Part shown: one piece after another, positions 22,836 to 28,237 of the stretch
Numbering within the stretch: position 1 is the stretch's first letter
Layout of the letters: every line of letters begins with the position of its first letter
Source of the DNA: Solirubrobacterales bacterium
GTDB taxonomy: Bacteria > Actinomycetota > Thermoleophilia > Solirubrobacterales > 70-9
NCBI GenBank assembly: GCA_050697175.1
Contig: JBOGZB010000207.1
Location: 1 to 34,674, forward strand
Direction: 5' to 3'
DNA length: 34,674 bases
Made by a program: the position numbers and the translations under genes
The notes under the pieces: model-generated
Seen by the model: only the letters and a program-made list of their open reading frames with translations
The model's database searches: none
What the model was told of the DNA's origin: nothing

Positions 22836-23207
22836 TCAGCCGGACGGCGGGTCGATGCGAAACACCGGGTGGTCGGGCGCGATCCTTCGAAGCTCCTCGT
22901 CAGCCGAATCCGGCCCGACCCCGCCGAAGAAGACGCCGACCTCCCACTTCCAGCGCTTCAGGTAGGCGCGAAGGATCGGGGGCTTCTCGTCATCCCCGAC
23001 CTCGGTGGCGATGAAGCCCTCGGAGCGCCTGCCGACCAGCAGCCGTCCCTCGTTTCGGGCCCGGAGGTTTCGCACCCACTGGGTGTGGCCCCGCGGAGCG
23101 ACCAGGTAGCGGGCGCCGTCGATGACCACGGGGTTGACGGGCGTTCGGCGGGGCTCGCCGCTGGTCCGTCCCCGGACCTCCAGCACCCGCGATCCGGCGA
23201 CGCTCAA
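22836..23207 (-). CDS. Deazaflavin (F420)-dependent nitroreductase-family (DDN-like) split-barrel protein
   Basis: GRTSGEPRRTPVNPVVIDGARYLVAPRGHTQWVRNLRA resembles the family core (GRxSGxxRxxPV...W.RNL). TTG start at 23207. Confidence 0.7.
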   Translation of the reverse strand: MSVAGSRVLEVRGRTSGEPRRTPVNPVVIDGARYLVAPRGHTQWVRNLRARNEGRLLVGRRSEGFIATEVGDDEKPPILRAYLKRWKWEVGVFFGGVGPDSADEELRRIAPDHPVFRIDPPSG

Positions 23208-23347: not shown

Positions 23348-24847
23348 TCACCCCCTCATCCCGGCCACGCGGCTCACTGCCGTGGGCCTAATAGCGGTGC
23401 TCCTTCGGCCGATCGCTCGAAGCTCGCTCTGGACGTACCGGTAGCCGGCCTCGGCTGCGCCGACGTCCCTGTCGCCGGTCGTCCCCGGGAATCGTTCCCG
23501 GATCGAGCTGGCGACCGATTCGAGCGTCACGCACCCGCTGAGCGCCGCGAACGCGCCGACCAGCGCGGCGTCCGGCAGGGGCATTCCGATCTGCTCTTGC
23601 GCGATCTCGCTCGCCGGAATGCTGATCCGCCGGTCGGGACGCAACCTGGCGACGCGCTCGCCGAGACCCAGCTCCTCGATGGTCCTGGGCGAGTTGACGA
23701 GCAGGTAGCCCCCGGGCTCGAGCGCCTCGCAGAGGTCGCGCAACTGGGGGATCTCCGGGTCTTGAACGATCAGGCCGTCGGGTGGCCCGATCGACTGCCG
23801 AGGCCGGATTGGCTGCCCTCCGATGCGGCAGAACGCCACCACGCGTGGACCCCCGGGCCCCGAGCGAAAGCTCGGGAACGCGAGCGCGTCGCGGCCCTCG
23901 ACCAGCGCTGCGACCGAGAGGAGCTCCGCCGCGGTCATCACGGCTTGGCTGTCACGGCCGTCGAACCGAACCTGGAAGGAGCGGTCCGGGTCGCTCTTCA
24001 CCGGATCCGGCTCCTGCTTGTCAGTGCGCCGCGCGATGGCGCGGGCCACGGTGCCGCCGAGCAGCAGCGCGACCCCCAATCCCACCAGGCCCACGATCCA
24101 GGCGGGGAACTCGGATCCGCCGTGACCACTGACCGTCGAGGGAGTTGCGGTGAGCCGGTGCGCCGGTGCGCCGGCGTGGTCCGGGGTCGAGGGCGAATTC
24201 GGGGCCTGCCGCGGCTTCGCCGACGGCCTGCCCGCTCGCTGTGGACTGGAGACGGACGTCCGATCGGATGTGGCCGCGAACCCCGCTAGCCGTGCGCTGG
24301 TGGCGGTCCCGATGATTCCGTCGATCGCCAGGCCCTCGCCGGCCTGGAAGCGCTCGACGGCGATCTGGGTCCGGGGGCCGAATCGACCGTCCAGCGGCCC
24401 CGGGTGCTCGCCCGCCCGGCGCAGTCGATGCTGGAGTCCACGCACTCGCGTCGAGCCGCCGGGCTTGGCGTAGCCGGCGCCGTCAGATACGACCACGGCC
24501 TGCTCGTTGAGGGCGCTCGATGTAGCCGGCCCCACTATCCCGTCGACCGCCAGGCCCTCGCCGGCCTGGAAGCGCTCGACGGCTTCTTGAGTCAGCGGTC
24601 CGTAGAGCCCGTCGATCGGCCCTGGGCGCTCGCCCGCCCGAATCAGTCCGTGCTGGACCGCGCGTACGCGCGCGGAGCCATGAGGGGTCGAGTACCCCGT
24701 GCCCGAGGCGATCAGGCGGGTATCGGCCTGGGTGCCCTGGGCGCCGCCCCTCGCCTGGGCGAGAGCCGGGGCGGCGAGCATCAGGACGATCCCGATGAGC
24801 GCCGCCAGCAATCCACGTATTCCGGTGAAGTCGTTTGTTCTTCGCAT
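23348..24847 (-). CDS. Type I membrane protein: signal peptide, 2 x peptidoglycan-binding (PG_binding_1-like) domains, TM helix, cytoplasmic pyruvate/2-oxoacid:ferredoxin oxidoreductase gamma-like domain
   Basis: Strong SD AAGGAG before the ATG at 24847. Signal LLAALIGIVLMLAAPALAQA. Two copies of the V..LQ..L...G..PG..DG.FGP.T..AVERFQAGEGLA.DGI.G.AT block. TM helix FPAWIVGLVGLGVALLLGGTV. C-terminal region VRFDGRDSQAVMTAAELLSVAALVEGRDALAFPSFRSGPGGPRVVAFCRIGGQPIRPR...GYLLVNSP...PLPDAALVGAFAALSG..TLESVASSIRERFPG. Confidence 0.85.
   Translation of the reverse strand: MRRTNDFTGIRGLLAALIGIVLMLAAPALAQARGGAQGTQADTRLIASGTGYSTPHGSARVRAVQHGLIRAGERPGPIDGLYGPLTQEAVERFQAGEGLAVDGIVGPATSSALNEQAVVVSDGAGYAKPGGSTRVRGLQHRLRRAGEHPGPLDGRFGPRTQIAVERFQAGEGLAIDGIIGTATSARLAGFAATSDRTSVSSPQRAGRPSAKPRQAPNSPSTPDHAGAPAHRLTATPSTVSGHGGSEFPAWIVGLVGLGVALLLGGTVARAIARRTDKQEPDPVKSDPDRSFQVRFDGRDSQAVMTAAELLSVAALVEGRDALAFPSFRSGPGGPRVVAFCRIGGQPIRPRQSIGPPDGLIVQDPEIPQLRDLCEALEPGGYLLVNSPRTIEELGLGERVARLRPDRRISIPASEIAQEQIGMPLPDAALVGAFAALSGCVTLESVASSIRERFPGTTGDRDVGAAEAGYRYVQSELRAIGRRSTAIRPTAVSRVAGMRG
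24318..24583. repeat. Internal direct repeat: 44 nt with one mismatch (36 nt perfect), offset 222 nt
   Basis: 24318..24361 versus 24540..24583. The perfect run cgccaggccctcgccggcctggaagcgctcgacggc occurs at 24326..24361 and 24548..24583. It encodes the VERFQAGEGLA motif of the two PG-binding domains. Confidence 0.9.
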
Positions 24848-24880
24848 CGTCGTTTCTCCTTTTTCTCGAGCGAACGTGCT

Positions 24881-24906
24881 GCCGAAGCGCCAACGCGGCG
24901 CTCGGC
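24881..24906 (-). terminator. Hairpin between the repeat-protein gene and the PG-binding fusion gene (terminator or attenuator candidate)
   Basis: GCCGA(A)GCGCC - 5 nt loop - GGCGCTCGGC: 10 bp with a 1-nt bulge. Lies in the 84-nt spacer. Confidence 0.3.
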
Positions 24907-24931: not shown

Positions 24932-26365
24932 CTAGCCAGGTCGCTCGAGAAGGGCGATGCGGGCCGTCGACCGCCAGGCGGCCGGGGCCAGGGTGAGGCG
25001 CTCGAACATCAGGGCGGCGAGGCCCGCGAGCGCTAGCAAGATGGCGAGGAATGAGAGGGAGATACCTCCGGGGGCCGGGGAGCCGGCGCCCGACGCTCCG
25101 CCGGGGGCGGCGGGCGTGTCCGGAACTGTGGATCCGCCGTTCGCACCGGTGGCATGCGAGGCCTGCCCGGTGGCGGCGAAGCTGTGGGTCAGCGAGGCGG
25201 TCATGGCGCCGCCGGCGAGGGTGACGCCCCGATCGGGGGGTGATGCGAGGCCCGCCGGCGCGGTCGGCTCGCCGACCCGGGGGGCGTCGCCCTGGGCGGG
25301 GCCGGCGAGGCCCTCGGGGTCGGGGCCGGCGACGGGACCGCTCGAAGGTCCGACGGGCGCCGGCGCGGGGGGTTGGGTCGCGATGGGCGGGGTCGGGGCG
25401 GCGGCTCGAGGAACGTGGACCACCGGGGCGACGACGGGGGCGATCGGGTCATGGGGTCCGACGACCGGACCGACGATCGGATCGACCGTGCCGACGACGG
25501 GACCGACGATCGGGTCGGCGATCGGCCTGACCGTGCCGAGGATGGGGTCCGTGATCGGCGTGACGGGCCCGACGATCGGGTCGACCACGTGCCCGACTGG
25601 ATCGGTCACCGACCCGACGATCGGGTTGACGATGCTGGCGACCGGGCCGGTCACCGGGTCTACCACGGGGTCCACCGTGTCGACGACCGGCCCGACTGGC
25701 CCGGTCAGCGAGCCGACCACCGGGTCGACCGGCTTGGTGACCGGATCGACGGCGCCGGTGACAGGCCCGACCACCGAGCTCACCGGCTTGGTGACCTGGC
25801 TGATCGGGCCACCCGGATTGGTCCCCCGGTCGACCGCACCGGTGACCGAGCTCACCGGCTTGGTGACCTGGTCGACCACCGAGCCGGTCGCGTGGGTGAT
25901 CGGATCAGGGGTGGCGTCGGTCGGCGGCTTCGTGGGGGCAGGCGTCGCGTGAACGGGCGGCTTCGGCGCGATCGGCGGTGTCGAAGGTTTGGGTTGGTGG
26001 ACCTGCGGGACCGCCGTGGGCTTCGGAGCCACCGACGCCGCGGGCGGCTTCGGAGCGTTCACCACGGGCGGGGTGGGCGGAGGCGGTGCGCTCGGAGCGG
26101 AGTTCGCCGGCGGGGTGGGGGAGCTCGGTGTGTGCACCTGCGGGACCGCCGCCCGGGCCGCTCCCGCCGCGGTGCTCACCGCAGCGCCCACGGTCCCGGT
26201 CGACACAGGGTTCGCCGGGGTCGCCTTGGCCGCGTTCGTCACCGTCCCAGTTGACGGGACCGCAGCCGAGGCGTTTGCGAAAGAGAGCGCGAACAGGGCG
26301 GCGCTCGCAGCGGCCACCGCGACGAACGGGCGGCGAATCAAGGGCTGATTGATCGAGTGTCGCAA
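24932..26365 (-). CDS. Pro/Val/Thr-rich repeat envelope protein with signal peptide and C-terminal hydrophobic anchor
   Basis: TTG start 26365 (or 26341). Signal FVAVAAASAALFALSFANASA, then a proline-rich spacer. A long array of (D/N)P(I/V)VG(P/S/T)V-type units follows (VDPVVDPVTGPVASIVNPIVGSVTDPVGHVVDPIVGPVTPITDPILGTVRPIADPIVGPVVGTVDPIVGPVVGP). C-terminal segment ISLSFLAILLALAGLAALMF. Confidence 0.75.
   Translation of the reverse strand: MRHSINQPLIRRPFVAVAAASAALFALSFANASAAVPSTGTVTNAAKATPANPVSTGTVGAAVSTAAGAARAAVPQVHTPSSPTPPANSAPSAPPPPTPPVVNAPKPPAASVAPKPTAVPQVHQPKPSTPPIAPKPPVHATPAPTKPPTDATPDPITHATGSVVDQVTKPVSSVTGAVDRGTNPGGPISQVTKPVSSVVGPVTGAVDPVTKPVDPVVGSLTGPVGPVVDTVDPVVDPVTGPVASIVNPIVGSVTDPVGHVVDPIVGPVTPITDPILGTVRPIADPIVGPVVGTVDPIVGPVVGPHDPIAPVVAPVVHVPRAAAPTPPIATQPPAPAPVGPSSGPVAGPDPEGLAGPAQGDAPRVGEPTAPAGLASPPDRGVTLAGGAMTASLTHSFAATGQASHATGANGGSTVPDTPAAPGGASGAGSPAPGGISLSFLAILLALAGLAALMFERLTLAPAAWRSTARIALLERPG
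25773..25871. repeat. 27-nt perfect direct repeat (offset 72 nt) inside the repeat-protein gene
   Basis: accgagctcaccggcttggtgacctgg at 25773..25799 and 25845..25871. Encodes QVTKPVSSV twice. Surrounded by degenerate periodic repeats from about 25440 to 25900. Confidence 0.9.
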
Positions 26366-26630: not shown

Positions 26631-28064
26631 TCAGCTGTCGAAGCCCAGCCCGAGCCGGTCGAGGAGCCCAAGCCAAAGTCCGCGCCTTCCCTGACGTCGA
26701 TCAGCGGCGGCCAGACGGTTGCGGGTCAGGGCGATGACCGCCCAGCGCAGGGGCTCGGGGGGAAACGGCCAGGGCCGGCGGCGGATGGCGTCGAGCTTTC
26801 CGGATTCGCTCTCGCGACCCTCGAGGAGGTCCAACGCAACGCCGGCCCCGAACCGGCTCGCGCAGACGCCGAGCCCGGTGTGCCCGACCGAGTAGGCGAC
26901 CGCGCCGCGATGGGCGGTTCCATAGAAGGCGAAGAAGCGGCTGCAGGTGTCGATCGCTCCGCCCCACCGGTGCGTGAAGCGGAGACCTTCGAGCTGCGGG
27001 AAGACGGCGAAGAAGTGAGCCGCCAGCCGCGCGGAGCTTCGCTCGCTCTGCTCGAGGCCTGGCCGCTTGCCGCTGCCGTAGTGGTAGACGGCGTCGAAGC
27101 CCCCGAAGAGGATGCGGTCGTCCTGGGTCAGCCGGTAGTAGTGGAACTGGTTGGACGAGTCGGACAGGCCCTGGCGATTCGCCCAGCCGATCGAGGCGAG
27201 CTGCTCGCGCGTCAGGGGCTCGGTGACGAGGACGTAGTCGTAGACGGGAACGATCCGCCGCCTGATCGCGGGCACCAGGCCTCGGGTGGCGCCGCTCGCA
27301 AGCAGGGCCCGGCGTGCCTCGATCGCGCCCTCCCTGGTCTCCAGCCCGACCCCCGGCCCGCGCCGCGTGAGGCGCACCACCTCGGTCTGCTCGAAGACAC
27401 GGATGCCCAGCTCCTGAGCCACCCGGCTAAGGCCCCACGAAAGGCGCGCCGGGTCGAGCATTCCGGCACCCGTCCGGTCGATCATCCCGCCCAGATAGAG
27501 CGGCGAAGCGACCTCGGCCCGGGTCGCCTCGGCGTCGAGGACGGCGACGTCGTGGCCGTAACGCGCGGCCGTCTCGGCCGCCTCTTCGAGCCAATCGACC
27601 TGATGCGGCTCGACCGCGGTGCTGAGTGCCGCCGAGAGCTCGAGGCCGCAATCGATCGACCCGGAGGAGATCAGGTCGCAGACGTCGGCGAAGTTCTCCT
27701 CGCCCAGGCGCTCCAAGGCCTCCATCTGGTCGGGAAATCGCGCCAGGCCGTTCTCCAGCCCGTGGGTGAGCGAGGACTCGAGCAGGCCGCCGTTTCTGCC
27801 GCTCGCCCCAGACGCGATCCGCTCACCCTCGACCACGATCACGCCCAGGCCGGGGTCGCGCTGCTTGGCGAGGACCGCTGCCCAGAGCCCGCTCAGGCCG
27901 GCGCCGACGATCGCCAGGTCGGCCTGCTCTGAGCCGACCAGCGGATCACACGGCTCCGGTCGCAGGGGGGAGTCGAGCCAGAAGGGCAGCCGAGCCGCGT
28001 CCTCCCAGCTCGATCGTGGAGCGCCCTTCGCCTCGGCCCGGTCCCAGACCGTCGCGCGCGTCAC
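26631..28064 (-). CDS. FAD-dependent oxidoreductase (DAO / glycine-D-amino-acid oxidase-like)
   Basis: DLAIVGAGLSGLWAAVLAKQ...VVEGERIASGASGRNGG dinucleotide-binding motif. I prefer GTG 28064 (VTRATVWDR...). ATG 28226 would leave only 11 nt before the divergent gene. Confidence 0.8.
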   Translation of the reverse strand: MTRATVWDRAEAKGAPRSSWEDAARLPFWLDSPLRPEPCDPLVGSEQADLAIVGAGLSGLWAAVLAKQRDPGLGVIVVEGERIASGASGRNGGLLESSLTHGLENGLARFPDQMEALERLGEENFADVCDLISSGSIDCGLELSAALSTAVEPHQVDWLEEAAETAARYGHDVAVLDAEATRAEVASPLYLGGMIDRTGAGMLDPARLSWGLSRVAQELGIRVFEQTEVVRLTRRGPGVGLETREGAIEARRALLASGATRGLVPAIRRRIVPVYDYVLVTEPLTREQLASIGWANRQGLSDSSNQFHYYRLTQDDRILFGGFDAVYHYGSGKRPGLEQSERSSARLAAHFFAVFPQLEGLRFTHRWGGAIDTCSRFFAFYGTAHRGAVAYSVGHTGLGVCASRFGAGVALDLLEGRESESGKLDAIRRRPWPFPPEPLRWAVIALTRNRLAAADRRQGRRGLWLGLLDRLGLGFDS

Positions 28065-28237
28065 CCGACAGGCCGGTAAGGAGGCCTTGGACAGGGCCGC
28101 GCGTCGATCACCGGCACATGCTCCCACCCCGGGGCAAATGGCCCGACCGGCGGGCGCTCCGTGATCCCGGGGGGTGGGGAGCGGGCGCAGCGCGGCTCGG
28201 GCGAGCCGTACGCGTGGAAACGCCATACTGCGCGCCG

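Follow-up and report, generated by a model that had tools for sequence, protein, structure and literature searches.

A predicted peptidoglycan-binding membrane protein with a gamma-subunit-like domain of 2-oxoacid:ferredoxin oxidoreductases in uncultured Solirubrobacterales

We analyzed a 34,674-nucleotide stretch of DNA from a Solirubrobacterales bacterium (GenBank assembly GCA_050697175.1, contig JBOGZB010000207.1; hereafter, the window), whose G+C content is approximately 70%. A gene on its reverse strand encodes a protein in which a signal peptide, two PG_binding_1 repeats (PF01471), a low-complexity spacer and a single transmembrane helix are followed by a domain resembling the gamma subunit, or domain III, of 2-oxoacid:ferredoxin oxidoreductases (OFORs). 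We refer to this product as the fusion protein. Directly upstream and in the same direction lies a gene for a secreted repeat protein, hereafter the partner. The Thermoleophilia are an actinobacterial class that is abundant in soil and whose envelope has been little studied. A preliminary description, made from the nucleotide sequence alone, had drawn attention to the gene. Here we report its architecture, the family to which it belongs and its most probable origin. Related loci and proteins are denoted by L and P numbers, respectively.

Architecture and topology of the fusion protein

Pfam recognized two stretches of PG_binding_1 in the fusion protein (E = 4.8e-31), for which the score of 107 bits exceeds the threshold of 23. 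The POR family (PF01558) was matched at aa 301-469 with almost its complete profile (positions 3-172 of 173; E = 6e-23), and its 82 bits likewise lie above the threshold of 27.4. The NCBIfam model TIGR02175 (PorC_KorC) was matched with 118 bits against a cutoff of 81.1, whereas the equivalog-level gamma models (NF006321, NF040683, NF010632, NF045762 and others) all remained below their cutoffs, the best reaching 121 bits against 225. No family other than PF01558 was found in the cytoplasmic part by the Pfam and NCBIfam scans. In the family alignment the N-terminus is conserved, and the second PG_binding_1 repeat holds most of the invariant columns.

The hydropathy profile shows a signal-like segment at aa 12-30, followed by ALA/QA, and one transmembrane helix at aa 249-267. 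The 15 residues preceding this helix contain no lysine or arginine, and four follow it, a charge pattern that recurs in all eight other family members checked (9/9 including the protein of the window). Given the signal-like N-terminus, the single downstream helix and the charge asymmetry, the predicted topology is that of a type-I protein, N-out and C-in, with the PF01471 repeats lying outside the cytoplasmic membrane. A weakly hydrophobic segment at aa 424-445 was rejected as a second transmembrane helix; it is the buried ALVGAFAALSG core, which is present in soluble gamma subunits too. A Tat signal was likewise rejected, as RRTNDF does not match the Tat consensus.

An AlphaFold2 (AF2) model built from a 58-sequence alignment placed the transmembrane helix at aa 249-275 and the gamma domain at aa 290-485, the latter with a predicted local distance difference test score (pLDDT) mostly above 90. 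When this domain was searched with Foldseek, it matched the stand-alone subunits 9bt4_E/F, 2raa, 3g2e and 3on3, with E-values down to 6e-16 and target template-modeling scores of 0.80-0.86 (0.83-0.86 for gamma subunits such as 9bt4_E and 2raa). Oxalate oxidoreductase entries (5c4i, 5exd, 5exe) and Moorella pyruvate:ferredoxin oxidoreductase (PFOR) entries (6cin to 6ciq) were also matched, and a sequence search of the PDB returned 9bt4_E at E = 9e-29. The PFOR-gamma homology that the preliminary description had proposed is thus borne out by the profile scores and by the fold comparison. The domain order it had read from the sequence was recovered by Pfam, hydropathy and AF2, and its coordinates for the helix (24038..24109) and for the C-terminal domain (23426..23977) were right within a few codons. 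The topology that this order implied was predicted for all nine members checked. Coordinates of all features are listed in Table 1.

Table 1. Features of the window and of related loci, with their coordinates
Feature	Coordinates	Strand	Basis or remark
Fusion gene (signal peptide, two PG_binding_1 repeats, spacer, transmembrane helix, gamma-like domain)	23348..24847	-	Intact open reading frame (ORF), 499 aa plus stop
Shine-Dalgarno sequence AGGAG, 8 nt 5' of ATG (24847)	24856..24860	-	Seen in the sequence itself
Signal peptide, aa 1-32 (RR..R n-region, hydrophobic core 12-30, AxA sites ALA/QA)	24752..24847	-	Hydropathy 2.44
PG_binding_1 repeat 1, approximately aa 49-116	24500..24703	-	Pfam, best stretch 59-113 (profile 3-57 of 57); AF2 helices
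PG_binding_1 repeat 2, approximately aa 123-190	24278..24481	-	Pfam, NCBIfam, family alignment
Low-complexity spacer of Pro, Ser and Ala, aa 191-246; length and sequence vary	24110..24277	-	Gapped, unconserved columns; pLDDT <50
Single transmembrane helix, aa 247-270, then ARAIARRTDK (positive-inside)	24038..24109	-	Hydropathy, AF2
Predicted cytoplasmic gamma-subunit-like domain (OFOR domain III), aa 291-480	23408..23977	-	Pfam, NCBIfam, PDB sequence search, AF2, Foldseek
Degenerate P-loop GRDSQA, aa 297-302 (GRGGQG in canonical gamma subunits)	23942..23959	-	Comparison with canonical gamma subunits
FRSGPGGPR, aa 327-335, in place of canonical FGSER.GAP	23843..23869	-	Comparison with canonical gamma subunits
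Partner gene: secreted Pro/Val/Thr-rich repeat protein, C-terminal transmembrane helix, near-invariant end ...FERLTLAPAAWRSTARIALLERPG	24932..26365	-	
Imperfect GC-rich hairpin GCCGAGCGCC-GCGTT-GGCGCTTCGGC, no T-run after it, in the 84-nt partner-fusion spacer	24879..24905	-	By eye
F420H2_quin_red/TIGR00026-family gene, downstream of the fusion gene	22836..23207	-	123 aa, profile 26-101 of 130
DAO-family oxidase gene	26631..28226	-	531 aa from the first possible start
Tail-protein genes	L001 8192-9919; L081 8102-9919; L083 3-716; L084 3-1388		
Tail-protein genes	L086 4235-5920; L088 5001-5519; L089 4573-4923; L003 8255-9922		
Second secreted repeat protein, between tail protein and fusion	L082 7809-9881; L085 3461-5899		P0022 and P0015 loci
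Resolvase/recombinase-HTH proteins with the same N-terminal half	L089 5001-6554; L090 2097-3701		
Zn-ribbon/cyclase/AAA_16/TPR genes	L082 11532-14129; L085 7713-11333; L087 7760-11383; L002 1348-4950		
Canonical OFOR operons	L008 9998-14531; L004 10004-14690		Order gamma, alpha, beta, then (or fused) GltD-like protein

Loss of residues invariant in canonical gamma subunits

Next, we compared the fusion domains with approximately 100 stand-alone canonical gamma subunits, in which a position was considered invariant if it was at least 95% conserved. Twenty-five such positions have been replaced in the fusion clade or vary there, among them H296 and G299 of the GRGGQG loop, V304, F315 and Q322; G328-S-E-R331 and A334-P335, which belong to the FGSER.GAP motif; and T365-L-L-H-Q-V370, F373, G375, P423, N426 and N461. 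At position 299 all canonical subunits of the set (100%) carry G, whereas most of the fusion clade has D, E, H or K there. The protein of the window reads FRSGPGGPR, QDPEIPQL and PLPD, versus FG(S/V)ER.GAP, QD(P/A)TLL and P.(P/V)N in canonical subunits, and its glycine loop, which the preliminary description had called degenerate, proved so against the canonical set. The canonical motifs are kept from Thermoleophilia to the archaeon Methanosarcina acetivorans, whose subunit 9bt4_E reads GRGGQG, FGVERRGAP, QDATLL and P.VN; because this subunit retains them, the constraints at the motif level span bacteria and archaea.

The motif loss was stepwise. The basal P0033 retains FGSERTGA, and the clade of P0020, P0024, P0026, P0034 and P0038 retains GRGGQG; the crown clades read GR(D/E/K/H/N)G.G, and the GRDSQA of the window is the most degenerate form. 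Since basal members still carry GRGGQG, the degeneration came after the fusion and not before it. The fusion domains are also more divergent, with a mean pairwise identity of 0.57 versus 0.74 among canonical gamma subunits. At the same time they are under constraint: between the fusion gene of the window and its 89%-identical homologue in L084, the ratio of nonsynonymous to synonymous substitution rates (dN/dS) was 0.27 overall, 0.27 in the peptidoglycan-binding region and 0.20 in the gamma domain.

In PFOR, the binding of coenzyme A (CoA) is assigned to domain III, specifically to its phosphate-binding loop, in published work (PMC8091585, citing Chen et al. 2018; PMC12337175). In the Sulfolobus enzyme, domain III flanks the modeled ferredoxin site (PMC5020499). 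A fold that is kept under purifying selection while functional motifs invariant in the family disappear is the signature of a pseudoenzyme domain under a new, non-catalytic constraint, and the domain is most likely a non-catalytic pseudo-gamma; the state of the loop suggests that the domain of the window has lost CoA binding. We did not classify it as a gamma subunit, because its equivalog score, its P-loop, its FGSER, TLL and PxPN motifs and its operon context all fail to agree with one. The non-catalytic sensor or scaffold role proposed in the preliminary description from the glycine loop alone gains strength from the family-wide loss at the 25 positions and from the purifying selection.

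Extent and origin of the family

In a search of 5.8 billion proteins, approximately 39 clusters (at 90% identity) carried both PF01471 and PF01558, with identities ranging from 89% down to 41%. These clusters stem from independent JGI, ENA, NCBI and Logan assemblies. In an alignment of 18 full-length members the order of the parts is identical throughout, and the spacer alone is variable. HMMER, run exhaustively against 1.84 billion sequences representing 50%-identity clusters, found only about eight family members of full or nearly full length. When 185,579 species genomes were scanned, the full-length matches and nearest relatives were found in metagenome-assembled genomes (MAGs) of Solirubrobacterales/Thermoleophilia, and every host identified is an uncultured MAG. 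The fusion family is real, but small and restricted to this lineage. Some database members are truncated or frameshifted (e.g., P0003, P0035 and P0061). In databases the members bear generic names that do not agree with one another, namely "peptidoglycan-binding protein, partial", "2-oxoacid:acceptor oxidoreductase family protein" and "pyruvate ferredoxin oxidoreductase gamma subunit"; an exact look-up of the fusion protein of the window returned no record. Our literature search found no paper that names both PF01471 and PF01558 or describes these proteins. The domain architecture is new, made of known parts, and no paper was found to cover it. The preliminary description knew of no described protein that couples these two halves and would have given up the claim of novelty had the architecture proved common and annotated; it is rare, and its database names are generic.

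The closest relatives of aa 291-480 are stand-alone gamma subunits of approximately 193 aa, with 50-57% identity. They start with "...VRIHGRGGQGVVTAAELLSVAAF" and come from the same orders, together with some Pseudomonadota and Pseudonocardiales. At two loci, L008 and L004, a gene of this kind stands first in an operon that encodes POR, POR_N+PFOR_II, TPP_enzyme_C and a GltD-like Fer4_20/Pyr_redox_2/Fer4 protein and thus a bona fide OFOR. L004 and the full-length homologue L001 belong to the same MAG, and the canonical gamma subunit P0155 lies with P0005 on one 647-kb contig; thus, parent and derivative coexist in one genome. The possibility that the fusion substitutes for a missing gamma subunit was rejected, as the two genomes checked also hold either a complete gamma-alpha-beta operon (L004) or a canonical gamma subunit (P0155).

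To place the fusion domains among gamma subunits, a neighbor-joining tree of 38 fusion domains and approximately 100 canonical gamma subunits was built with the archaeal 9bt4_E as its root. The 38 fusion domains fell without exception into a single clade. Its sole other tips were three apparently stand-alone sequences; these were rejected as separate genes, being N-terminally truncated fragments of fusion proteins that start inside the transmembrane helix. The simplest history is one duplication followed by one fusion, from the OFOR gamma subunit of the lineage itself.

The two canonical operons also have a layout of their own. Their GltD-like protein combines Fer4_20 and Pyr_redox_2 with two [4Fe-4S] units, and they have no separate delta subunit gene. 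Such a layout points to a 2-oxoacid oxidoreductase linked to NAD(P)H.

The partner gene and the interchangeable cytoplasmic heads

The partner has a signal peptide, Pro-rich stretches, "VDPIVGPV" repeats and a C-terminal transmembrane helix, and its sequence matched no Pfam or NCBIfam family. Its end is shared by proteins at other loci, and we refer to all of them as tail proteins. The consensus of the tail is GG(I/L)S.SFLA.L.ALAGL.AL.FERL.LAPAAWRS.A(R/L).ALLERPG*, with a short form ...LAPAAWRS.ARIALLERPG. Over its last 45 residues the tail is 71-100% identical across loci at which the fusion proteins are 45-89% identical. It resembles a signature for anchoring or sorting at the C-terminus, of a kind not yet described.

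A motif scan of the loci established the linkage between the two genes. In the window and in L001, L081, L083, L084, L086 and L088, the gene immediately before the fusion gene encodes a tail protein, with spacers of 77-84 nt where measured. A variant tail, "LAIAPATLRPAPELG.PD.PG", is found directly upstream in L087 and one gene further upstream in L085 and L082. A reciprocal search with the tail, limited by its word index, returned seven proteins, and the one that lies on a long contig precedes a gene with the same order of peptidoglycan-binding, transmembrane and POR parts. The upstream repeat-protein gene to which the preliminary description had pointed is therefore a conserved partner, and a comparison of neighborhoods across relatives showed that it recurs while the other neighbors vary by clade. 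The gene between tail protein and fusion in L082 and L085 encodes a second, very different secreted repeat protein of 690-812 aa, with tandem Gly/Asn-rich "GGNGGNA(D/N)..GN" units, Cys-rich knots and no Pfam family.

The nearest relatives of the N-terminal half of the fusion protein are not wall hydrolases. They share the same signal peptide ("MRKTIDA..."), two peptidoglycan-binding repeats, a spacer and a transmembrane helix, and carry another cytoplasmic domain. The alternative heads after the helix are a resolvase and/or recombinase helix-turn-helix (HTH) domain (49 of the 120 best matches), TPR/Sel1 repeats and HATPase. The resolvase/recombinase-HTH form is represented by P0051, P0053, P0055, P0056, P0065, P0070, P0078, P0094, P0113 and P0120, and P0064 is a paralogue with TPR repeats. 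The tether, comprising signal peptide, two PG_binding_1 repeats and transmembrane helix, is thus a reusable cassette with interchangeable heads. By eye, the resolvase heads read GYAIVPA, GYVSVRA or similar at an N-terminal motif that is GYxRVS in active serine recombinases. The resolvase heads appear to lack the catalytic serine and would be pseudo-resolvases; this fusion would be a wall-anchored, membrane-tethered pseudo-recombinase, possibly one that binds DNA. Several heads of the cassette derive from enzymes and are probably inactive.

The tail protein also precedes a cassette gene with a recombinase head (L089) and one with an Arg-rich cytoplasmic part (L003). A cassette gene almost always lies directly after a tail-protein gene, whatever the head. 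Because the same tail protein precedes the genes of L089 and L003, the partner belongs with the cassette and not with the gamma domain. For the same reason, the idea that the tail is a specific ligand of the gamma domain was weakened. Basal members with an intact GRGGQG loop, the reusable cassette and the conservation of the partner gene were not part of the preliminary description.

Co-transcription of partner and fusion gene is plausible from their arrangement. A terminator scan called no site in the spacer between them; the hairpin in this spacer could be a terminator or attenuator lacking a U-tract, or an element that stabilizes the mRNA.

Genomic context of the fusion gene

Of the approximately 25 ORFs of the window that were scanned, none belonged to an OFOR alpha, beta or delta family (POR_N, TPP_enzyme_C, Fer4), in agreement with what had been stated from the sequence, and none was a secretion or partition gene. 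Alpha and beta genes were also lacking near the fusion in nine other loci with the same combination of parts. In the deeper clades (L002, L082, L085 and L087), the next gene encodes a STAND-like protein of 865-1207 aa with a Zn-ribbon, a class III cyclase domain, AAA_16 and TPR repeats. L082, L085 and L087 have, in addition, a divergently transcribed sigma-70-family gene with an unknown neighbor nearby, upstream, and in L083 cyclase genes occur within a few kb. This context hints at an ancestral association with signaling that was lost in the clade of the window. A role in anti-phage defense was rejected: PADLOC returned zero families for the fusion protein and the partner, and only generic PycC-level matches for the cyclase protein.

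Interpretation

We propose that the fusion protein is a wall-anchored tether that displays a non-catalytic adaptor or sensor domain, and that the gene pair forms one envelope module. We put the chance that this proposal is correct at about even. The two PG_binding_1 repeats, on a flexible spacer of approximately 55 aa, are predicted to hold peptidoglycan, and the pseudo-gamma would serve as a non-catalytic binding module on the inner face of the tether. Partner and cassette protein would probably act together in the envelope, with the cytoplasmic head deciding what is recruited or sensed inside.

Several observations weigh against this proposal. The AF2 model renders the peptidoglycan-binding repeats helical, but its confidence there is low (pLDDT 30-65). 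As the partner goes with the cassette, it says little on what the gamma domain binds; moreover, the two genes may not form an operon, given the hairpin in their 84-nt spacer and the strong ribosome-binding site of the fusion gene itself. The basal members retain GRGGQG or FGSERTGA, and the clade of the window has gained two arginines, R328 and R335; some members may thus still bind CoA, as may perhaps, in altered form, those of the clade of the window.

An accident, that is, a mis-assembly, a frameshift joining two genes or a decaying pseudogene without function, could be suspected from the truncated and frameshifted database members and from the P-loop of the window being the most degenerate of its family. 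This explanation is hardly credible: the architecture is unbroken in approximately 39 clusters from independent assemblies at 41-89% identity, dN/dS is 0.2-0.27 in both halves, the helix and its positive-inside pattern are conserved, and the gamma domain is modeled with pLDDT above 90. It is effectively refuted by the conservation data, and the same ORF in all these clusters rules out a frameshift or assembly join at the transmembrane region. The domain might instead be a working gamma subunit, anchored in the membrane, that brings the alpha-beta core of the cellular OFOR, GltD-like protein included, to the membrane or wall, where CoA-dependent catalysis would take place. Its 50-57% identity to genuine gamma subunits of the same genomes, the full-profile match above the TIGR02175 cutoff, the fold preserved with high confidence in AF2 and Foldseek, the purifying selection and the P-loop of the basal members would all fit. 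We nevertheless consider it quite improbable, as the equivalog models stay far below their cutoffs (e.g., 121 bits against 225), 25 invariant positions are lost with the P-loop glycine turned into Asp, and the fusion domains evolve faster than canonical gamma subunits. Furthermore, both canonical operons examined (L004 and L008) already have a gamma gene before alpha and beta, and neither the window nor the nine other loci examined has an alpha or beta gene near the fusion.

What most closely competes with the adaptor is a one-component transmembrane sensor, in which the Rossmann-like domain derived from the gamma subunit binds a cytoplasmic metabolite (CoA, acyl-CoA or a nucleotide), or the peptidoglycan-binding repeats sense wall fragments. 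The signal would cross the membrane through a change in oligomerization and couple central metabolism to the state of the wall. The joining of the same ectodomain cassette to signaling or output modules (HATPase, HTH-bearing pseudo-resolvase and TPR) argues for such a sensor, as do the four deeper-clade loci with the Zn-ribbon/class III cyclase/AAA_16/TPR protein next to the fusion, three of them with a sigma-70-family gene nearby, and the cyclase genes within a few kb in L083. The ancestral domain, moreover, binds CoA as a ligand (PMC8091585). However, the gamma fold is not known to have any output activity, neither the cyclase/sigma context nor the ligand loop survives in the clade of the window, and nothing separates sensing from simple anchoring. 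We regard a sensor in this strict sense as unlikely.

On a wider and doubtful reading, the locus would represent an undescribed two-gene envelope module of Solirubrobacterales/Thermoleophilia, formed by a tail-anchored, extensin-like, wall-spanning repeat protein with its near-invariant tail and a peptidoglycan-binding tether whose interchangeable heads are built time and again from dead enzymes (pseudo-gamma, pseudo-resolvase). Its pseudo-gamma form would couple the acyl-CoA/OFOR node of central metabolism to the wall. If this were true, the pseudo-gamma module would sense a CoA-type ligand or capture OFOR subunits at the membrane.

Relation to described systems

The domain of the window has the same fold as the OFOR gamma subunits (PorC/KorC, PF01558, TIGR02175; represented by 9bt4_E of M. 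acetivorans and PorC 2raa of T. maritima) and is clearly homologous to them. In contrast to these, it is fused to a transmembrane helix and a wall-binding ectodomain with no alpha or beta gene alongside, it lacks the P-loop, FGSER.GAP, TLLHQV and P..N (PxPN) motifs, and it scores below the equivalog cutoffs. The OFOR gamma subunit (domain III) is not known in any role other than binding CoA within a soluble metabolic enzyme. At this locus, the gamma fold has been exapted to form the cytoplasmic head of a membrane protein that is predicted to be anchored in the wall. As in pseudoenzymes, dead paralogues that now act as scaffolds or regulators and that are a concept and not a family, the fold is kept under purifying selection while invariant residues are lost, and the resolvase heads of the sister fusions seem to lack the catalytic Ser motif.

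In its working logic, the fusion protein comes closest to GspA/ExeA of type II secretion, in which a cytoplasmic AAA+ ATPase, one transmembrane helix and a periplasmic PF01471 domain are combined in one protein and the partner GspB is encoded adjacent to it (PMC9239104). Both have a PF01471 ectodomain, a single transmembrane helix, a cytoplasmic domain of nucleotide-binding fold and an adjacent partner. In GspA, however, the cytoplasmic domain is N-terminal, which gives the opposite orientation, and its fold is different; the fusion protein has no secretin or type II secretion context, and its hosts are Actinomycetota.

The polar landmark proteins FimV/HubP, with a LysM ectodomain, one transmembrane helix and a cytoplasmic TPR or acidic hub, follow the same logic of a wall-anchored single-pass protein that presents a cytoplasmic binding module, and P0064 has essentially that layout. 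Unlike them, the fusion protein carries PG_binding_1 instead of LysM, shares no sequence homology with them and offers no evidence for polar localization. The fusion protein is homologous to neither GspA/ExeA nor FimV/HubP in its cytoplasmic part, and the likeness to them points to a possible mode of working and not to membership.

The family presents an unusually clean case of exaptation, because parent and derivative are found in one genome and the stepwise loss of motifs is visible across its members. Its value is limited by its small size and restriction to one lineage and by the uncultured hosts. For enzymologists, it would be a natural experiment on the gamma residues that serve CoA binding or subunit docking; for those who study envelopes, it would give a first handle on the system of cassette and tail-anchored repeat protein in Thermoleophilia.

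Other genes flanking the fusion gene

The clade of the window consists of the window, L001, L081 and L084. In this clade, a DAO-family oxidase gene lies upstream of the partner (called in the window, L001 and L081), and downstream of the fusion gene are an F420H2_quin_red-like gene (window and L081), a MarR regulator gene (window and L084) and an MFS transporter gene (all four). The two flanking genes named in the preliminary description are thus both present; the F420-type reductase gene downstream is conserved only in the sub-clade of the window and, in contrast to the partner, is no lasting neighbor. Its counterparts are a 102-aa product without a Pfam match in L084 and a 131-aa product in L081, and the gene may be decaying or mis-started in this sub-clade.

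For the DAO-family oxidase, the syntenic homologue in L001 begins approximately 54 codons further in ("MTPATVWDRAEAKG..."); therefore, the true start is probably internal to the ORF of the window. The long shadow ORFs on the strand opposite to this gene are typical of DNA with 70% G+C.

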